A stretch of 32,000 nt of DNA from Pyrobaculum calidifontis JCM 11548 (GTDB taxonomy: Archaea; Thermoproteota; Thermoprotei; Thermoproteales; Thermoproteaceae): the NCBI RefSeq assembly GCF_000015805.1, contig NC_009073.1, positions 1,505,762 to 1,537,761 on the forward strand, written 5' to 3'. Each line of letters begins with the position of its first letter. Within the stretch, counting starts at the first letter, position 1. Under the pieces are notes generated by a model. It had not been told where the DNA came from. It saw nothing but the letters and a program-made list of their open reading frames with translations, and made no database searches. This document shows positions 10,727 through 24,189 of this stretch, one piece after another. The translations under genes and the position numbers were made by a program.

Positions 10727-10768
10727 GGCTCTTGGAAAGGCTTAAAATATATTTACTACATGGGCGCA

Positions 10769-12526
10769 ATGGGGCGTGCTGAGCGGCTTGAGGAGATCGT
10801 AAAGAGGAGGTTGATCTATTGGCCCAGCTCGGAGATCTATGGCGGCATCGGCGGCTTTTATGATTTCGGCCCCCTGGGGGTGCAGATTAGGCGGAATATT
10901 GTCGAGAAGTGGAGACGCACCTTCGTCTTACCCTACCAAGACTTCATCGTGGAGGTGGAAACTCCCATAATTATGCCCGAGCCCGTGTTCAAGGCCTCCG
11001 GCCACCTGGACCATTTCACAGACTACGTAGTGACGTGTAGTAAGTGTGGTAGAAAGTTTAGGGCGGATCACTTGGTGGAGGAGGAGTTGGCCAAGAGGGG
11101 GCTCAAGGTGTCCACGGAGGGTCTCTCGGCCGCTGATCTCAAGCGCCTCATAGAGGAGCATAAGATTCGTTGCCCAGTCTGCGGCGGCGAGCTGGGGGAC
11201 GTGGAGACATTTAACCTCTTGTTTAAGACGACGATAGGCCCCTACAGCGACAGCGCGGGTTACCTCAGGCCTGAGACTGCGCAGGGCATTTTTGTGGCGT
11301 TTCCGCGGCTCGCGGAGTATGTGGGCAGGAGGCACCCATTTGGCGTGGCGCAGATTGGCAGAGTGGCGAGGAACGAGATATCGCCCCGCGGCGGCCTCAT
11401 TAGGCTGAGGGAGTTTACTCAGATGGAGATTGAGCTGTTCTTTGACCCACAGAACCCCAAGTGTCCAGTCTTCGCCGAGGTGGAGAACTTGGAGGTGCCC
11501 ATTGTGCCAGAGGAGCTCGTGGCAAAGGGGGCGACCGACCCGCTTTACCTCACGGCGCGGGAAGTGGTGGAGAAGGGGTACGCCAACGAGTGGATGGCGT
11601 TCTTCATGGCCCTCGCCGCCAAGTTCCTAAGGGAGCTCGGCGTGCCTCTAGAGAAGCAGAAGTTCCTCGGGAAGCTCCCCCACGAGAGGGCGCACTACTC
11701 GGCCAAGTCCTACGACCAGATGGTTTACACAGAGAGGTTCGGGTGGGTGGAGGTCTCTGGCCACGCATATCGCACAGACTACGACCTCTCTGGTCACAGC
11801 AAGCACAGTGGGCAGGAGCTCTACTTGGAGAGGAGGCTCCCCGCGCCGAAGGAGGTGGAGGTGGTCCGCGTATACCCCAACCCGGCTACTATAAGGGAGA
11901 AGTACGGCGATAGGCTGGGCGAAGTGGTTAAGGCAATTAAGGAGGCGGAGGCAAGGGTGGCGGAGGCCTTTAGGCAAGGCGCGAGCGAGGTGAGAGTCGG
12001 CGACTTCGTTGTGACGCGCGAGATGGTGTTTATCAAGGCCGAGAAGCGTCGTACCGACTTGGAGAAGTTTATACCCCACGTGGTGGAGCCGTCGTTTGGC
12101 CTTGACAGAATTCTATACGTTGTGCTAGAGCACGCGGTGGCGGAGGAGGGCGGCAGAGTGTATCTGCGCTTGCCGCCCGACATTGCGCCTGTGACTTTGT
12201 GCATTTTGCCAATTGTAAAAAGGGAGGACTACGTGGCCATTGGTAAGAGGCTTATGAGAGAGTTGGCGTCTGAGGGCTTCCTCGTGCACTATGACGACGA
12301 GGGGACTATTGGCAGTAGATACGCCGCGTGCGACGAGGTGGGGACTCCCCTCGCCGTTACCATAGACGAGAGAACCCCCGTCGACGGCACTGTCACTATT
12401 CGCGACCGCGACACTAGGAGGCAGGTTAGAGTGAAAACTAGCGACGTAGCCCGCTTCGCCGCCTTGGTTAGAGGCGGTGTTCCCTTTGACAAGGCCGCGG
12501 AGGCGCTGGGCGCTTCACCTCAGTAA
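10769..12526 (+). CDS. glyS: Glycyl-tRNA synthetase (archaeal/eukaryotic alpha2 type)
   Basis: Motifs YGGIGGFYDFGPLG, YLRPETAQGIFV, GRVARNEISPRGGLIRLREFTQMEIE and a C-terminal anticodon-binding domain. The ATG at 10769 fits the TATA spacing better than the track ATG at 10760. Confidence 0.9.
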   Translation: MGRAERLEEIVKRRLIYWPSSEIYGGIGGFYDFGPLGVQIRRNIVEKWRRTFVLPYQDFIVEVETPIIMPEPVFKASGHLDHFTDYVVTCSKCGRKFRADHLVEEELAKRGLKVSTEGLSAADLKRLIEEHKIRCPVCGGELGDVETFNLLFKTTIGPYSDSAGYLRPETAQGIFVAFPRLAEYVGRRHPFGVAQIGRVARNEISPRGGLIRLREFTQMEIELFFDPQNPKCPVFAEVENLEVPIVPEELVAKGATDPLYLTAREVVEKGYANEWMAFFMALAAKFLRELGVPLEKQKFLGKLPHERAHYSAKSYDQMVYTERFGWVEVSGHAYRTDYDLSGHSKHSGQELYLERRLPAPKEVEVVRVYPNPATIREKYGDRLGEVVKAIKEAEARVAEAFRQGASEVRVGDFVVTREMVFIKAEKRRTDLEKFIPHVVEPSFGLDRILYVVLEHAVAEEGGRVYLRLPPDIAPVTLCILPIVKREDYVAIGKRLMRELASEGFLVHYDDEGTIGSRYAACDEVGTPLAVTIDERTPVDGTVTIRDRDTRRQVRVKTSDVARFAALVRGGVPFDKAAEALGASPQ

Positions 12527-14895: not shown

Positions 14896-15237
14896 ATGGC
14901 CACTATTAGGGGCATCGTCATTAGCAAGCAGTTGGTGTACGACCCGAGCGGCGCTAGATACATAAAAGTCGATATAATAGAGGAGAAGGAGTTGCCGGGC
15001 CCCGTGGCGGCCTTTTCTGCGCAAGATGAGCAGACGGCGCAACTCATGCGCGAGGTAATGCCGCTTGTTACACAGATAGTGCGGTCTCTCCCCTTCGGAG
15101 GGGGTAAGATAGCAGTGCCGAGGCTAACTCTGTGGCTGACTGACGAGGAGCTGGAGATGTTTGGCGACGTGGACGTGGGCGACGTCGTTTTAATCTCTGT
15201 AGAAAATGGCGAAATTAAGGTAAAGCCAGAAGCTTAA
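14896..15237 (+). CDS. rkd-1: Arcadin-1 candidate (113 aa), first gene of the crenactin cluster
   Basis: Lies immediately upstream of crenactin on the same strand, as described for the arcade cluster of Pyrobaculum. ATG 14896 is preferred over track TTG 14878 because of the TATA spacing. No enzymatic motif. The C-terminal segment [22 protein letters not shown] looks like a beta-hairpin. Confidence 0.6.
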
Positions 15238-17225: not shown

Positions 17226-17396
17226 GTGGACATCCTCCTCGAGGAGGTTAGGAAAGTCTTTGGGAACACCGACGAGGGGAAGCTCGCAGAGAGGCTCATA
17301 GTCGCCTACAGACAACGGGGGGCTAGGGGGGCTAGAGAGGTTTTAAAGAAGTACTTGGAGGAGTTGGGCGTAGATGTGGCGGATATCGAGAGTTGA
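17226..17396 (+). CDS. rkd-3: Arcadin-3 candidate (56 aa), absent from ORF track
   Basis: GTG 17226 to TGA 17394-17396: (M)DILLEEVRKVFGNTDEGKLAERLIVAYRQRGARGAREVLKKYLEELGVDVADIES. The composition is all-helical. A canonical TATA sits at the same 22-23 nt spacing as the neighbouring genes. It overlaps the arcadin-4 start by 23 nt. It fills the only gap in the cluster, at the position expected for arcadin-3. Confidence 0.5.
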   Translation: MDILLEEVRKVFGNTDEGKLAERLIVAYRQRGARGAREVLKKYLEELGVDVADIES

Positions 17397-19761
17397 GCTG
17401 GAGAACTTCCGCTCGTATAGGGGAGCGCACAGGCTGGAGCTAGGCGACGTCAATTTGCTGTGGGGCAGGATAGGCGCTGGGAAAACCTCCGTTTTCTACG
17501 CCATTGAGTACGCCTTGTTTGGCCAACAGCTTGAGGTCAAGGAGAGGGTGGCCAAGCTAGCCGACTTGATACACTCGGGGTCTCACGAGGCTAGAGTGGC
17601 TCTAGAGCTGGTGGACGGGGCCAATGTGCTTAAGGTGGAGAGGAAGCTGGGAAAGCGGGGAGCGGAGAAGCTCGTCGTTGTGCACAACGGCGTAGAGCTC
17701 AGAGGCGGCGAGGCGGAGAGGAGGCTGGAGGAGCTTTTAGGCGTAGACGAGGATTTGTACGAGCGGTTGGTATACATTTCTCACAGGACGCTGGAGGGCT
17801 TTATCTACGGCACCTCTCAGAAGAGGGCAATCTCGGTGGATAGGCTCTTCGGCATCGACGTGATAGACGGCGTAGTTAAGACCGTCTCCTCGGCCGAGAA
17901 GGCGCTGTTGGGGAAGGCGGAGGAGCTGAGGAAGAGGCTGGCGGCTTATGAGAAGTACCGGGATGTGATTAAGAGGTATGGTGGCTACTCGGGGCTAGTG
18001 TCTAGGCTTAGGGCTCTGAGCTCCGAGATTGAGGCGCTGAAGGAGCGGGAGGCTATGTTGACGAGGACGGTGGAGGAACTTGCCAGGGCGCGGGCGGCGT
18101 ATTTGGCGAAGCTGAAGGAGCACGAGCAGATTCTACTGGAGTACTACAGGGCCAGGTCTGAGCTCGAGTTTTTGGAGTCCTCCGCGGGGGGCGAGGTAGA
18201 CGTGGGCGCGCTGGAGAAGGTGAAGGCCGCGCTTAGGGAGGCCGCTGAGGAGTTTGAACACATGCTTGACCCAGGCATATTGGAGAAGTTGTACAAGGCG
18301 TCCGACCTGGAGGCCCTCTCGGTGGCCATGGCCGAGGTGTACGACGCATTGACTAGGGTTGCAAAAGACTTGGAACTCGAGCTGACCGACGTGAAAAAGG
18401 CCTATGAGGAGTATGTGGCCAGGGCGAGGAGACTTGAGGAGGAGGTGGCCGCGGCTGAGGCGCGGCTGAGGAGATTGGAGAAGCCGTTTTTGCGCTTTCA
18501 AGAGCTTTTAAAGAAGCTTCGCTCTTTGGAGGAGGCCCGGGCGAGGCTAAGCGAGGCCAGGCGTAGGCTTAGCGAGGCGGAGAGAGAGGCGGCGTATTAC
18601 ACGTCTCTCAAGACTGTGGCGTTGTACCTAGCTGAGACAAACGCCTCTGTTTGCCCAATATGCGGCTCGCCTATAAGCAGAGAGGCCGTAGAGAAAGTAG
18701 TTCGGGATATCGATGAAAAGTTCGGCGGCGTAGTGAAGAGAGTGGAAGAGCTACGGGAGGAGGTTAAGGCGCTGGAGAGAGAGGTAGAGGAGATGGAGAT
18801 CCTCCAGGGCGACGCGGCAGAGTACATAGCCGCGAAGGCTAGACTGGACGAATTAAAGGTAGAGAGAGAGGAGGTGGTGAAAAAGGTGTTGCAGGCTGAG
18901 AAGTCGGTTAGGCAGTTGGAGAAGAGAATTGAGAAGTTGCGCGAGTTTTTTGCAAAAGTGGACAAGCGTGTCATCTCAGACGCCGTCTCTAGGTATGGGA
19001 GAGCCGTGAGGATTAGGGAGCTTAGGAAAAGGGTCAAAGAACTTGAGGAGAGGCTGAGGCAGGCGGGGATAGGGGGAGAGGAGCTCGAGGTGGAGGTCAA
19101 GTGGAGGGAGGCGGCGGCTGAGCTTGAAAAGGCGGCGGCTAGGCTAGCCGAGTTGTACAAGGAGAAGAGCCTCTTGGAGGAGGCGGCGCGGGAGGTTGGG
19201 GAGGAGGCGGAGGGGCTGAAGAAGAGGCTGGACAACGTGCTGTATGCGTATGGAAGACTAGAGGAGCTCAAGTCCCGGCTTGAGTTAGCCAAGGTTAGCG
19301 CAAGAGCTAGGCTTGTGGAAGTGGTGAGGAGCCGTTTCAACGAGGTGTTTCAAAGCTTGTATAAGTATGGCGACGTTGTGAAAGTGGACGCGGCGGTGGA
19401 GCCCAGCAGGGGGTACTACGACTTCTACGCCATTTCTCCCTCCGGCGATAGATATGGCGTCTCCCGGCTGAGCGATGGGCAGAGGCTGTCAATAGCCCTC
19501 TCCCTGGCCCTAGCGTTAAGAGAAATCTCCCAGGTGAAGCTCGGCTTCTTAATCTTCGACGAGCCGATACCCTACGTCGATGTAAATGTGAGAAAGGCCT
19601 TCGCCCAACTTCTCACATCGCTGGCTGGGCGCTACCAGCTCCTAGTGGCCACCCAGTCTAGGGAGTTCGCGGAGGAGGTCAGAGAGGCTTTGCCAAACGC
19701 AAAGCTGTTCACCGTTGTGAAAGACGGCGCCTCTGCGCTGATAGAGGGGTTACAAAGCTGA
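17374..19761 (+). CDS. rkd-4: Arcadin-4: Rad50/SMC-like coiled-coil ABC ATPase with zinc hook
   Basis: 795 aa. Walker A GRIGAGKTS (17464-17490). About 250-aa E/K/R/A/L-rich coiled-coil arms flank a central CPIC motif (C427-C430, 18652-18663). ABC signature LSDGQRLSIAL (from 19468). Walker B FLIFDEP (19546-19566). Last gene of the crenactin cluster. Confidence 0.85.
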   Translation: MWRISRVELENFRSYRGAHRLELGDVNLLWGRIGAGKTSVFYAIEYALFGQQLEVKERVAKLADLIHSGSHEARVALELVDGANVLKVERKLGKRGAEKLVVVHNGVELRGGEAERRLEELLGVDEDLYERLVYISHRTLEGFIYGTSQKRAISVDRLFGIDVIDGVVKTVSSAEKALLGKAEELRKRLAAYEKYRDVIKRYGGYSGLVSRLRALSSEIEALKEREAMLTRTVEELARARAAYLAKLKEHEQILLEYYRARSELEFLESSAGGEVDVGALEKVKAALREAAEEFEHMLDPGILEKLYKASDLEALSVAMAEVYDALTRVAKDLELELTDVKKAYEEYVARARRLEEEVAAAEARLRRLEKPFLRFQELLKKLRSLEEARARLSEARRRLSEAEREAAYYTSLKTVALYLAETNASVCPICGSPISREAVEKVVRDIDEKFGGVVKRVEELREEVKALEREVEEMEILQGDAAEYIAAKARLDELKVEREEVVKKVLQAEKSVRQLEKRIEKLREFFAKVDKRVISDAVSRYGRAVRIRELRKRVKELEERLRQAGIGGEELEVEVKWREAAAELEKAAARLAELYKEKSLLEEAAREVGEEAEGLKKRLDNVLYAYGRLEELKSRLELAKVSARARLVEVVRSRFNEVFQSLYKYGDVVKVDAAVEPSRGYYDFYAISPSGDRYGVSRLSDGQRLSIALSLALALREISQVKLGFLIFDEPIPYVDVNVRKAFAQLLTSLAGRYQLLVATQSREFAEEVREALPNAKLFTVVKDGASALIEGLQS

Positions 19762-19807: not shown

Positions 19808-20554
19808 TCAGCTTGTGTGTTGCTCTGTTCCAGTATTAAAACTTGCCCTCTGCCAGACGTGGTTGAAGTAAGTCTTGGCAACCTCGATTATGTAGCGCTC
19901 GTTGGAGTAAACTCCGCTCAGTTCGTCGAAGTGTTTTACGTAGATCACGACGGCGTCTCCGATGGCGCCTCCGCCGAAGAGCTCAGCCGTGGTCCTCACC
20001 TCCACGCGGGGAGGCAGGCTCAACATGGGCCTCAGACGTGCAGTGGTAAGAACCTTGATAGACACCCTCTTTGACTCCTCCTCTATTGCCGAGACCAGCC
20101 TATACGTCACCAGCTCTGGGAAGGGGAGAGCGAGGTACACCTCGGAGTCCGCCGTAGTTATGATCTCGTGGACTAACTCGGCAATCCGCTCCGTGCCTCT
20201 CACCAGCGTCAAGAACGTCGAGGCAACTGCGTGCTGTCTCTCGTAGACCATTTGCAACCCGTCGAAATAGGGCTTTAACTGCCTCAACGCCTCCGATGTC
20301 TTGTTTACAAGCATTTTGTAGACCTCCGCGGGGGGTCTCGCCCTGTACCTGTACGGCCTCCCACCGCCCTCCTTTGCCACAACGCCCAGGTTCTCCAACT
20401 TGTAGAGGTAGGTGTATATCTTTGTGTAGGGGATGCCCAGCGCCTCTGCCAACTCTCTTGCCGATTTGGGGCCCTGTTCTACCAAGGCTACGTAGATCTC
20501 CGCCTCCCGCTCCCCGACGCCGAGGAGGGAGAGGACTCTGCCGAGCTGGTCCAC
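19808..20554 (-). CDS. TrmB-family transcriptional regulator
   Basis: The N-terminal wHTH LLGVGEREAEIYVALVEQGPKSARELAEALGIPYTKIYTYLYKLENLGVV is typical of TrmB proteins. A C-terminal effector-like domain follows. GTG start 20554, with TATA gataaata (plus 20573-20581) 23 nt upstream. Confidence 0.85.
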   Translation of the reverse strand: MDQLGRVLSLLGVGEREAEIYVALVEQGPKSARELAEALGIPYTKIYTYLYKLENLGVVAKEGGGRPYRYRARPPAEVYKMLVNKTSEALRQLKPYFDGLQMVYERQHAVASTFLTLVRGTERIAELVHEIITTADSEVYLALPFPELVTYRLVSAIEEESKRVSIKVLTTARLRPMLSLPPRVEVRTTAELFGGGAIGDAVVIYVKHFDELSGVYSNERYIIEVAKTYFNHVWQRASFNTGTEQHTS

Positions 20555-20589
20555 GGAGAGGTGGCGGTTTAGCTATTTATCTTTTTCCG

Positions 20590-20602
20590 TTAACCGGGTT
20601 AA
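20590..20602. promoter_or_regulatory. Perfect palindrome TTAACC-G-GGTTAA; candidate TrmB operator
   Basis: Six-nt arms around one central base. It lies between the two divergent TATA boxes (20573-20581 and 20607-20614) and abuts the A-rich BRE-like stretch of the radical-SAM promoter. Confidence 0.4.
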
Positions 20603-20606
20603 AAAG

Positions 20607-20614
20607 TTTAAATA
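20607..20614 (+). promoter_or_regulatory. TATA box (tttaaata) for the radical-SAM gene
   Basis: Centred 24 nt upstream of ATG 20635 and preceded by aaaaag. Confidence 0.5.
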
Positions 20615-20634
20615 TAGATGGCCACGGGGGCGCA

Positions 20635-22374
20635 ATGAGCAAACAAGTGCTGGAGCTAGAGGCTAAGCCGAAGAGGCTGGTGGATCTCTCCAGGTTTAAT
20701 CTGCCAGAGAGGTACAAATCGACGTTGACAAATGAGAAGTGGCAGACGATGGTCAAGAGGCAGTACGGACTGCCAGAGGATACCCGCGCAGTGAAGGCGA
20801 CGCTGTCTCTCTGCCCAGTCTGCAACAGGAGGATACCGGCTGTGGTCTACGAGGAGAACGGTGCTATATGGCTTAAGAAGAGTTGCCCAGAACACGGCGT
20901 ATTTGAGGACTTGTACTGGGGCGACGCGGAGATGTACTACTACTTCCTCCAGTGGGACAGGCCCGAGTACATCGCCAAGGGCCTTGCAAACCCCTACACA
21001 GATCTGGAGTTCTACAAGGACATGGGCTCTTGTCCCGAGGGCTGCGGCCTCTGCCCAGTGCACAAATCCAACACCGTGTTGGCCATAATCGACGTCACCA
21101 ATAGGTGCAACATGGCGTGCCCCGTGTGTTTCGCCAACGCCGGCGCCGCCGGCTACGTCTATGAGCCGACCCTAGAGCAGATAGAGTACATGTTGCGCAC
21201 GTTGAGGGCGCAGAAGCCGTGGCCCCCCAACGCGATTCAGATATCGGGCGGCGAGCCTACGCTTAGAGACGACTTGCCCATAATCGTATCCATGGCCAAG
21301 AAGCTCGGCTTTACGCACATTGAGGTGAACACAAATGGCATTAGGCTGGCCAACGAGCCGGAGTACTACAAGGCCCTGCTAGACGCGGGCATGTCCACCA
21401 TATACCTCCAGTTCGACACGATCGACGAAAAGAACGAGGGCGTGTGGCGCCACAGGCTTTACCACCCCAAGGCCTACGCCGCCATAAAGTACAGAGTAAT
21501 TGAAAACGCGAGGAAGCTGGGCCACCGCTCCATAGTCCTAGTGGTGACTCTGGCCCGCAACTACAACGACAAGGACTTGGGCAAGATCATCGACTTCGCA
21601 ATTCAGAACAGAGACGTGGTGAGGTGGGTGAATATACAGCCCGTGTCCTTCTCAGGCCGCGCCAGGCTGTACAGCAAGGAGGAGCTCCGCAAATTCCGCA
21701 TAACGATCCCGGACACCATAATTGAGATTGAGAAGCAGACCGGCGGAGCCATCAGCAGGTGGGACTGGCGCCCCACCAACTGGCCAGTGGCCGTGGCCAA
21801 GATGGTCGAGGCGTTGACAGACTCGCCCAAGCCTCTCTTCTCCATGAACCCCATGTGCGGCGCCGCCACCTTCATATACTACGACGAAGACGAGAAGCGC
21901 ATATACCCAATCACAAAGTTGGTAGACGTCGACGCGTTTGAGCGCGGCGCGTGGGATGTGTACTACACAGCGGTGAAGGGCGGAGTGTATAAGCAGGCGG
22001 CTAAGCTAAAGGCGCTGAAGCTATTGAAAGCGGTCAAACACAAGAGGGTAAAAGACTTGATCTACGACTTCCTCGTGAAAAAGGACTACGAGTCGCTTGG
22101 CCGCTTCTTCTTCAACGTGGTGGGCATCGGCATAATGCACTTCATGGACACAATGAACTACGACGTAGAGAGAGTGCAGCGCTGCGACATCCACTACGCG
22201 ACGCCAGACGGCCGCGTATTCCCATTCTGCACATACAACGTCGTCGGACACAGAGAAAAGGTAGAGCAGTCCTTTAAGGTCGATCCAAAGACCTGGGTGA
22301 AGGTGACCGGTGTATCTCTGACCGGGTGGAACAAGCAGAAATTCCAGGAAATACGCACAAGCATAAGCCCATAA
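20635..22374 (+). CDS. Radical SAM enzyme with N-terminal Cys3His ribbon and auxiliary Cys cluster (MJ0619-like; candidate tetraether lipid synthase Tes/GDGT-MAS family)
   Basis: 579 aa from ATG 20635. Track ORF codons 20296-20634 are antisense to trmB. Motifs: CPVC...SCPEHG (20812-20895), CPEGCGLCPVH (21031-21063) and the radical-SAM CNMACPVC, a Cx3Cx2C (21106-21129). SGGEPTL SAM-binding motif and a large C-terminal domain. The family assignment is from memory of the architecture, not from a search. Confidence 0.8.
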   Translation: MSKQVLELEAKPKRLVDLSRFNLPERYKSTLTNEKWQTMVKRQYGLPEDTRAVKATLSLCPVCNRRIPAVVYEENGAIWLKKSCPEHGVFEDLYWGDAEMYYYFLQWDRPEYIAKGLANPYTDLEFYKDMGSCPEGCGLCPVHKSNTVLAIIDVTNRCNMACPVCFANAGAAGYVYEPTLEQIEYMLRTLRAQKPWPPNAIQISGGEPTLRDDLPIIVSMAKKLGFTHIEVNTNGIRLANEPEYYKALLDAGMSTIYLQFDTIDEKNEGVWRHRLYHPKAYAAIKYRVIENARKLGHRSIVLVVTLARNYNDKDLGKIIDFAIQNRDVVRWVNIQPVSFSGRARLYSKEELRKFRITIPDTIIEIEKQTGGAISRWDWRPTNWPVAVAKMVEALTDSPKPLFSMNPMCGAATFIYYDEDEKRIYPITKLVDVDAFERGAWDVYYTAVKGGVYKQAAKLKALKLLKAVKHKRVKDLIYDFLVKKDYESLGRFFFNVVGIGIMHFMDTMNYDVERVQRCDIHYATPDGRVFPFCTYNVVGHREKVEQSFKVDPKTWVKVTGVSLTGWNKQKFQEIRTSISP

Positions 22375-22386: not shown

Positions 22387-24189
22387 CTACCTCCTCTCTC
22401 TTCTTATCACGAGGAGCACAGTAATTGCTAGAGCTACGGCAACTATTGCCAACGGCATCTGAAACGACATAGTATCTCTCTGCTGCGGCGTAGTGGCTAC
22501 TGCGGGTAGGGGTATCGTGGTGTTGCGCATGGCTGGCGGAAGTTCAATGAAATACCGGACCTCGACCCTTGTCGCATTCACTACGGCAAGATACATCTCC
22601 ACTGCGGCGCGGCGCGTCGACAGCTCATAAAGCTGCCTTCTCAACTCGGCGGTGTAGTTGTACAATGCGGACTCTACAAAGCCGAGCCTGGGCAACGCGG
22701 CCAGTTGCTCCACCTGATAGTCTCTAAGGCCACGGGCGTAGTGGACGAGGTCGTCACCAGCTCTCCTGAGCGTAGCAGAGGCGTTGTAAAGCGGCGCCAC
22801 GTATTTAGACACCTCGTCTGCAGTTTTGTAGAGGTTGGCCGCAACGTCGTCTAAGTTCTTCGATGCGTTTAATATGATCTGCGGCATGCCTTGTTTAAGC
22901 GCCGTGGCGTTCCCCCGCGTGGAGGCCGCAGTGGAGTTTAACAGAGGCGCCAGCTCTCCCAAGCTCTTCCTAGTTGCCTCGAGAGTATTCACAGAAGAAT
23001 CAACTATAGCGATAAGGCTGTCTACAATGCCTAGCAAAGAGTCCACGGACTGCCTCAGCGAGCGCAACTGCAAAATTGCTGCGTCGAGAGGTCTCTCACC
23101 TTGTGTTAAATTCAGCTGGGAGAGAGCTCTCTTGGCGCTCTCTAACTCGCCTATCGCCAAGTCGATTGACTGGCGGATTGCCAGTAGATTAGATCTAATG
23201 CCAAAGAGCTGTCTGCGCGTCTCGGCAAGCCCCTGTATTGTCTGCCCAGCGGCCACGTCGTAGGAGGCCAACGCCGCTGACTGCGTTTCTAACAAGTTGG
23301 CGGCTGTTATAAGCGCTAGGTACTGGTAGTCAACTAAGAGGAGGCTCCGGTTTAACACCTGCGACACCCCAGCCGCAGCATCCCCCAGCGCCGCCACTTG
23401 TCTCCTCAGCGCCTCCAGCGCATACGTCGACGTGTTCAACGCGCTGGCCCCCTGGCCCAGGGCAAGGCCCGTCAAGTTGAGAAGCTGAATGAGGCGGGTC
23501 AAATTTTGCAACTGGCCGTAGGCAGTCTCCGTAAACAGTGAGACAACCCTTGAGAAATTCTGTAGCTGGGCAACGGCGCTGTTTAACTCCCTCGTCTGCC
23601 TATCAAAAGCCGACAATGTGCCGTTTAAATCAAGCGTCGCAGTTATAGACACCGTGGGCAACCGTACAGCCCCAAAGCTCCCAAACTCCCTAATCCTCAG
23701 ACCCAGCTTAAACTCTGTGTAGTTACCCACCAGGAGAGCCCAGTAGTACACAGTAGAGCCCGACACCTGGGTCACTGAGGTAGGAGCCACGTCATAGAGC
23801 AGGGCAACTTTTCCATCCGTCGCCACCGACACCACCACGGGCACAGACACAGGGAGAAGGGGACGGAGCTTCACCAATAGCCGAACCACGGTCGTGTTAT
23901 CCGCCCAGAGGACCCCATCTCTATAGACCCCGTTCACATAACTCACGTCTACGTCCACCGCGAGAAATGGGGGATACACATTTTGCGCCGGCCGCTCCAA
24001 CACCACCGCCGAGTAGGGGGGAACCGTCACGCCTGACACATTCACGGGGCTTGGCCCATTGTTTACGAGGACTTCTTGAAGAGAGACAGAGCTCGTGACG
24101 GCGCCCCCAGGCTTTACGTTGTACGTCATTACAAGCGTAGATGCGGCTAGGAAAACCGCCACAGCGAGTAGGTACAAGAGCTGCCTCAT
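22387..24189 (-). CDS. Bitopic surface glycoprotein candidate (600 aa) with long heptad-periodic helical ectodomain; third gene of the MacB/FtsX-type ABC operon
   Basis: N-terminal signal/TM (MRQLLYLLAVAVFLAASTLV). Beta-rich region to about aa 190. About 330 aa rich in L/A/Q/S/N with heptad spacing (e.g. TIQGLAE TRRQLFG IRSNLLA IRQSIDL AIGELES AKRALSQ). C-terminal TM + RRERR. I count 17 N-x-S/T sequons. Its ATG overlaps the ATPase stop by 4 nt. Confidence 0.75.
   Translation of the reverse strand: MRQLLYLLAVAVFLAASTLVMTYNVKPGGAVTSSVSLQEVLVNNGPSPVNVSGVTVPPYSAVVLERPAQNVYPPFLAVDVDVSYVNGVYRDGVLWADNTTVVRLLVKLRPLLPVSVPVVVSVATDGKVALLYDVAPTSVTQVSGSTVYYWALLVGNYTEFKLGLRIREFGSFGAVRLPTVSITATLDLNGTLSAFDRQTRELNSAVAQLQNFSRVVSLFTETAYGQLQNLTRLIQLLNLTGLALGQGASALNTSTYALEALRRQVAALGDAAAGVSQVLNRSLLLVDYQYLALITAANLLETQSAALASYDVAAGQTIQGLAETRRQLFGIRSNLLAIRQSIDLAIGELESAKRALSQLNLTQGERPLDAAILQLRSLRQSVDSLLGIVDSLIAIVDSSVNTLEATRKSLGELAPLLNSTAASTRGNATALKQGMPQIILNASKNLDDVAANLYKTADEVSKYVAPLYNASATLRRAGDDLVHYARGLRDYQVEQLAALPRLGFVESALYNYTAELRRQLYELSTRRAAVEMYLAVVNATRVEVRYFIELPPAMRNTTIPLPAVATTPQQRDTMSFQMPLAIVAVALAITVLLVIRRERR

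Follow-up and report, generated by a model that had tools for sequence, protein, structure and literature searches.

The closest described system to the locus examined here is the arcade cluster, a set of genes around the archaeal actin crenactin that was first described in Pyrobaculum calidifontis (Ettema et al., 2011). Its last gene encodes arcadin-4 (Rkd4), a protein whose relationship to Rad50 has already been stated (Izoré et al., PMC5173319; PMC9389158), with much the same said in PMC9723716 and PMC10869688. In a published tree, the eight arcadin-4 sequences included group with full support as a single clade inside archaeal Rad50 (Yoshinaga et al., 2022, PMC9389158), and arcadin-4 co-localizes with crenactin filaments in P. 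calidifontis cells, a result of Ettema 2011 that is cited in PMC5173318, PMC9723716 and PMC10869688. We analyzed a 32,000-nucleotide stretch of the P. calidifontis JCM 11548 genome (NC_009073.1, positions 1,505,762 to 1,537,761; the window) that had earlier been read from its letters alone. This sequence-only reading singled out the gene at 17374-19761 as a Rad50-like ATPase embedded in an actin operon and implied that it was new. It is not: the locus is the P. calidifontis arcade cluster itself, and the gene and its order relative to its neighbors do not differ from the arcadin-4 described by Ettema et al. (2011). The literature already covers this gene, its descent from Rad50 and its link with crenactin; the name arcadin-4 (Rkd4) dates from 2011, and a curated NCBI model exists. 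Our best explanation, to which we give a probability of roughly 85%, is that the gene is arcadin-4, a descendant of Rad50 whose product probably serves the crenactin cytoskeleton as an ATP-gated tether or cross-linker and not DNA-end repair.

The reading frame is open across 795 codons and matches the complete Rkd4 model (residues 2-746 on model positions 1-747 of 747); Pfam SMC_N and AAA_23 match it as well. The gene and the parts on which our argument draws are listed here, with invariant residues taken from a 16-sequence alignment.

17374..19761, plus strand: arcadin-4 gene (rkd-4), 795 aa; NCBIfam NF053563.1 (Rkd4 equivalog), 1035.6 bits (cut-off 860)
17464..17487, plus strand: Walker A motif GRIGAGKT, aa 31-38; G31, G34, G36 and K37 invariant
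17782..17784, plus strand: His137 in the Q-loop, within SHR (RQG or KQG in Rad50)
17857..18639, plus strand: N-terminal coiled-coil arm, aa 162-422, from the secondary structure of an AlphaFold2 model
18652..18663, plus strand: CPIC, aa 427-430, the putative zinc hook, in a non-helical loop (423-435) between the arms
18679..19359, plus strand: C-terminal coiled-coil arm, aa 436-662, from the same model, broken at aa 529-530 and 564-567
19468..19482, plus strand: ABC (ATP-binding cassette) signature LSDGQ, aa 699-703
19546..19581, plus strand: Walker B and D-loop FLIFDEPIPYVD, aa 725-736; D729, E730, P731 and D736 invariant
19654..19656, plus strand: Gln761 in the H-loop, within ATQS (TSHL or ITHH in Rad50)

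These positions bear out the sequence-only reading, which had placed the Walker A motif, CPIC, LSDGQ and a Walker B motif FLIFDEP (aa 725-731) as we find them and had recognized in them the split head and zinc hook of Rad50. When a profile of the family was compared with PDB sequences, archaeal Rad50 heads were the best matches (3AUX, 5e-47) and SMC heads were about 26 orders of magnitude weaker, and the best Foldseek match was the Rad50 of the Chaetomium thermophilum MRN complex (7ZR1, 2.4e-26). The hook geometry is seen in the AlphaFold2 model, which was built from the 16-sequence alignment (mean predicted local distance difference test score, pLDDT, 86.4). In this model one half of the head (residues 1-160) is followed by helices (162-422), a 13-residue non-helical loop (423-435), a second set of helices (436-662) and the other half of the head (663-795), such that CPIC joins two arms, about 260 and 227 residues in length, at the apex of an extended helical hairpin. 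Zinc binding by this tip is a prediction. Arcadin-4 thus descends from Rad50 and retains the split ABC head, antiparallel arms of about 230-260 residues and a CPxC hook.

The arms are not uniform. The N-terminal arm carries about 35 extra residues and is irregular at approximately aa 241-311 (pLDDT 61-72 at aa 241-280), the C-terminal arm is irregular at aa 529-567, and the two interruptions lie at roughly facing positions where the confidence of the model is lower. Y202-G203, E292 and G565 are invariant among divergent orthologs. The interruptions may be an elbow or a binding site for a partner.

In ABC ATPases the Gln of the Q-loop helps coordinate Mg and the His of the H-loop touches the gamma-phosphate. 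Alignment of arcadin-4 to the M. jannaschii Rad50 (3AUX) by hidden Markov model (HMM) places His137 opposite this Gln and Gln761 opposite this His. The two residues are a property of the clade, as was evident when 59 arcadin-4 orthologs were compared with 90 canonical Rad50 proteins of Thermoproteales.

Q-loop: S/T-H-R in 59/59 arcadin-4 orthologs; R-Q-G in 90/90 canonical Rad50 proteins
Signature: LSDGQ in 59/59 arcadin-4 orthologs; LS[LIV]GE in 90/90 canonical Rad50 proteins
D-loop: DEPIPYVD in nearly all arcadin-4 orthologs; DEPTEHLD in 90/90 canonical Rad50 proteins
H-loop: A/T-S/T-Q-S/A in 59/59 arcadin-4 orthologs; T-S-H-L in 90/90 canonical Rad50 proteins

Replacement of the Q-loop Gln by His137 and of the H-loop His by Gln761 would be expected to leave ATP binding and head engagement in place while slowing hydrolysis or changing its regulation, and judged from these residues arcadin-4 probably turns over ATP slowly or under different control. 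We found no mention of this exchange in the accessible literature.

The hook is conserved as well. The motif CPxC occurs exactly once in every one of the 59 full-length database orthologs, 55 of which contain exactly two cysteines; in the P. calidifontis protein C427 and C430 are the only ones. C427, P428 and C430 are also invariant in the 16-sequence alignment, which extends down to 22% identity. Conservation of CPIC in orthologs, on which the sequence-only reading had made its proposal depend, therefore holds with one metagenomic exception, the contig L020 discussed below.

The same reading had pointed to cytoskeletal neighbors and to the lack of an adjacent nuclease or helicase partner. Both observations were upheld. 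Arcadin-4 is preceded by four genes, all on the same strand and separated by gaps of 22-35 nt apart from one overlap.

14896..15237, plus strand: arcadin-1 gene (rkd-1), 113 aa, its start placed as in gene calls on identical contigs; Pfam PF18653 Arcadin_1, 2e-42; PDB 5LY5, annotated 'arcadin-1', 198 bits over 113/113 residues
15260..16552, plus strand: crenactin gene (archaeal actin), 430 aa; Pfam Actin; PDB 4CJ7, 5LY3, 5MW1 and 4BQL, 939 bits over residues 2-430 (429 residues), these being P. calidifontis crenactin structures (PMC4158420, PMC5173319)
16579..17190, plus strand: arcadin-2 gene (rkd-2), 203 aa; NCBIfam NF053561.1 (Rkd2), 300.3 bits (cut-off 290)
17226..17396, plus strand: arcadin-3 gene (rkd-3), 56 aa, GTG start; NCBIfam NF053562.1 (Rkd3), 113.5 bits (cut-off 90); the last 23 nt are shared with the beginning of the arcadin-4 reading frame

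The small arcadin-3 gene had been overlooked in the sequence-only reading. The C-terminal tail of arcadin-2 (NEWVKILRSKR) is kept in three related loci (L010, L011 and L012).

Gene context was surveyed by tblastn with arcade and repair proteins against 92 fetched loci, and it divides sharply with identity. Among loci with at least 30% identity, a small arcadin-3 homolog lies directly upstream of the arcadin-4 ortholog in all ten that reach far enough (L010, L011, L012, L014 and L016-L021), mostly together with crenactin and arcadin-1. The full cluster is kept down to 32-35% identity (L010, L011, L014, L016, L017, L019 and L021), and P. neutrophilum shares the gene order. Loci with less than 28% identity never contain arcade genes; in many of them Mre11 is the next gene upstream and HerA is close by. 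Conversely, no Mre11, HerA or NurA was detected by tblastn at any of the fetched arcadin-4 loci, and with the P. calidifontis NurA, HerA and Mre11 proteins as queries the 32-kb window gave no match below E = 0.5. We did not find the invariant upstream position of arcadin-3 described in the accessible literature.

The sequence-only reading had named a second condition that would refute it: that arcadin-4 is the only Rad50 of its genome, which would imply a role in repair. We rejected this idea. A genome-contig search with a Thermoproteaceae Rad50 had earlier matched only its own contig; a protein search and cluster look-up then identified a second P. calidifontis Rad50 (ABO07791.1 / WP_011849048.1, 700 aa) with RQG, LSLGE, DEPTEHLD and TSHL motifs and a CPVC hook at residue 357. 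Arcadin-4 is 28-31% identical to it. On contigs encoding a protein identical to ABO07791.1 the genes for NurA, HerA, Mre11 and Rad50 are consecutive, and one of these contigs comes from a Joint Genome Institute (JGI) metagenome (3300030446) that also holds a contig with an identical arcadin-4. In P. neutrophilum the arcade and repair loci are both present on one chromosome. Arcadin-4 is therefore a paralog, as the sequence-only reading had supposed: it has lost the Mre11/HerA/NurA context, and a separate canonical Rad50 is kept for that role.

From these observations we propose how arcadin-4 may work. Two protomers would join tip to tip through a Zn ion shared by the four hook cysteines, and binding of ATP would draw two heads together, with hydrolysis that is slow to turn over or altered in its regulation. 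Arcadin-3 would serve as a small partner subunit. With such a combination of hook dimer, ATP-gated heads, slow hydrolysis and dedicated partner, the complex would tether or cross-link parts of the crenactin cytoskeleton over a long reach, gated by ATP, and would not act in DNA-end repair. Its heads may hold crenactin, DNA or membrane; the sequence-only reading had likewise suggested that the protein could bridge or bundle crenactin filaments or tether them to DNA or membrane. The model of arcadin-3 (AlphaFold2, single sequence, pLDDT 89.9) has two helices, at residues 3-12 and 16-46. The exchange at the Q- and H-loops and the obligate pairing of arcadin-3 with arcadin-4 provide concrete handles for biochemistry, and the hook variant described next is a further lead.

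Several observations weigh against this reading. One metagenomic contig, L020 (30% identity), keeps the arcadin-3/arcadin-4 pair with no crenactin within 6 kb, and its ortholog has CPVY in place of CPxC. Unless this is a sequencing error, the hook and the linkage to actin are not universal. In addition, Pfam Rad50_zn_hook (PF04423) did not match arcadin-4 at E up to 0.01, and when the hook region alone (91 aa) was searched against the PDB, the hook structures 5GOX, 1L8D and 6ZFF were among 15 matches with non-significant E values of 0.095 to 4.6. Finally, a 2024 review states that the function of arcadin-4 "is completely unknown" (PMC11946384), in agreement with the remark of the sequence-only reading that its mechanism had not been demonstrated, and our search for newer literature found no functional study of arcadin-4, biochemical or genetic.

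Some of these points can be qualified. The L020 ortholog (5983-8400 of its contig) has a single cysteine, with CPVY at aa 431-434, and retains SHK, LSDGQ, DEPIPYVD and TQD. It could represent a lineage that truly lacks the hook or an error in one base, since Cys to Tyr is a single base change; we did not find a CPVY ortholog in the accessible literature. The Pfam hook model for its part gave a sub-threshold match (E 0.003) to CPVCGG (aa 132-149) in a glycyl-tRNA synthetase-like gene of the window (10760-12526). As this synthetase motif matches and arcadin-4 does not, a match of a bare CxxC to Rad50_zn_hook is not diagnostic either way. The L020 pair without crenactin, together with the upstream arcadin-3 in every locus that extends far enough, also indicates that the tightest linkage is that of arcadin-3 with arcadin-4.

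The order of arcadin-3 and arcadin-4 mirrors that of mre11 and rad50. Because of this matching order and the overlapping start, we considered arcadin-3 as a remnant of the C-terminal Rad50-binding helices of Mre11. The comparison of sequences gave no support to this idea: an arcadin-3 HMM (9 sequences, run with --max) searched against 11,416 open reading frames (ORFs) from 88 loci, many of them containing Mre11, recovered arcadin-3 only, and the next match (E = 0.21) was not Mre11.

A different view of arcadin-4 makes it mainly a chromosomal protein, which would replace the missing SMC/condensin of Thermoproteales and link the nucleoid to crenactin so as to segregate or fold the genome. We regard this, the main rival, as unlikely. 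The ancestor of arcadin-4 was a DNA-binding ATPase, and lobe I of the head contains a basic stretch (RKLGKRGAEK, aa 90-99). Thermofilum adornatum has no clear SMC complex homologs, its chromosome halves are juxtaposed, and arcadin-4 is its SMC-like protein (PMC11946384). Two of the loci in our survey point the same way: in L011, a cluster of 33-35% identity in which arcadin-1 is on the opposite strand, a gene for the DNA/RNA-binding protein Alba (3274-3555) is located between arcadin-1 and crenactin, and in L020 the arcadin-3/arcadin-4 pair stands away from crenactin, beside genes for an Lhr-type helicase and a Trm112-like protein. However, mass spectrometry of isolated P. calidifontis chromosomes detected no SMC-family protein (PMC7325993), and immunostaining put arcadin-4 with the crenactin filaments (PMC5173318). 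The two roles can coexist, because the heads of a tether might also hold DNA.

A more specific proposal joins elements of both. Arcadin-3 and arcadin-4 might form a remodeled Mre11-Rad50-like machine in which a small helical subunit replaces Mre11 and the exchanged residues of the Q- and H-loops make the ATPase a long-lived clamp, linking crenactin filaments to one another or to the chromosome. This is speculative, and on balance we doubt it. If true, the clamp would give Thermoproteales an actin-driven division or segregation apparatus; members of this order are reported to have neither FtsZ nor ESCRT-III (PMC7613921, PMC9723716) and no clear SMC homologs (PMC11946384).

That arcadin-4 has a redundant Rad50-type role in repair is very improbable. 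Its architecture and hook are those of Rad50, but it falls far under every NCBIfam Rad50 equivalog cut-off, its identity to the genome's own Rad50 is low, and its Q-loop, signature, D-loop and H-loop all differ from those of Rad50 and are invariant in the clade; moreover, synteny with actin genes is kept and at the fetched loci arcadin-4 is never found beside Mre11. An anti-phage defense ATPase of the Lamassu LmuB or PtuA/Gabija type can be dismissed almost entirely, since the full-length match to PADLOC LmuB (PDLC03859, 5.5e-39) and the weaker ones to PbeC, DndD, GajA and PtuA reflect shared SMC/Rad50 ancestry (133 bits for LmuB versus 1036 bits for Rkd4), the adjacent genes, which are cytoskeletal and housekeeping ones, include no effector, LmuA/LmuC-like or otherwise, and the locus, unlike a defense island, is core and syntenic over a genus and beyond.

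Downstream of arcadin-4 the window contains further genes. A TrmB-family regulator (19808-20554, minus strand) and a radical-SAM protein whose zinc ribbon is of the HMPTM type (20635-22374, plus strand) follow immediately, and both are kept downstream in P. neutrophilum, L010, L011, L015 and L019. The ORF of the latter could be extended to 20296..22374 (692 aa), but the additional Pro/Arg-rich 113 aa (20296-20634) overlap the TrmB gene on the other strand; given that gene calls on identical contigs start at 20635 (579 aa), the extension is probably not translated. The next gene (22387-24189, minus strand) encodes a protein of 600 aa whose C-terminal part includes a hydrophobic stretch and which matches no Pfam family significantly. 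It adjoins a MacB-type ABC ATPase/FtsX permease pair and an MMPL transporter, an arrangement that is also found in P. neutrophilum. Scans of the whole window for tRNAs and Rfam families returned none.

Arcadin-4 can also be compared with other known systems, first of all archaeal Rad50. Like the proteins of M. jannaschii (3AUX) and P. furiosus (1F2U/1L8D) it has a split ABC head, an antiparallel coiled coil and an apical CPxC, and it keeps the Walker A motif, the Asp-Glu of Walker B and the Ser of the signature. It differs from them in having no Mre11, HerA or NurA nearby and in the His of its Q-loop, the Gln of its H-loop, the signature LSDGQ and the D-loop DEPIPYVD. Relative to the Rad50 of P. 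calidifontis itself it is about 95 aa longer, with the hook at 54% of its length and an irregular insert in the N-terminal arm. All NCBIfam Rad50 equivalog cut-offs are missed (128.6 versus 1000; 95.7 versus 700). Bacterial SbcC, the name given to the orthologs in JGI annotation, belongs to the same superfamily and shares the overall architecture, but arcadin-4 has no SbcD/Mre11 nuclease partner and scores 47 bits with the sbcc model TIGR00618, against a cut-off of 478. SMC proteins and the ASRP group (coalescin ClsN and Sph) are likewise long coiled-coil ABC ATPases, and Sph3 too has been linked to cell shape (PMC10869688). In contrast to these, arcadin-4 has a CxxC hook and no hinge domain: no SMC hinge was among its Pfam matches, and it scores 47 bits with SMC_prok_B (cut-off 567) and 93.9 with the NCBIfam ASRP model (cut-off 300). 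The published tree also puts it with Rad50 and not with ASRP (PMC9389158). Arcadin-4 is thus a protein of Rad50-like architecture that stands outside the Mre11-Rad50 repair family, in a named family of its own.

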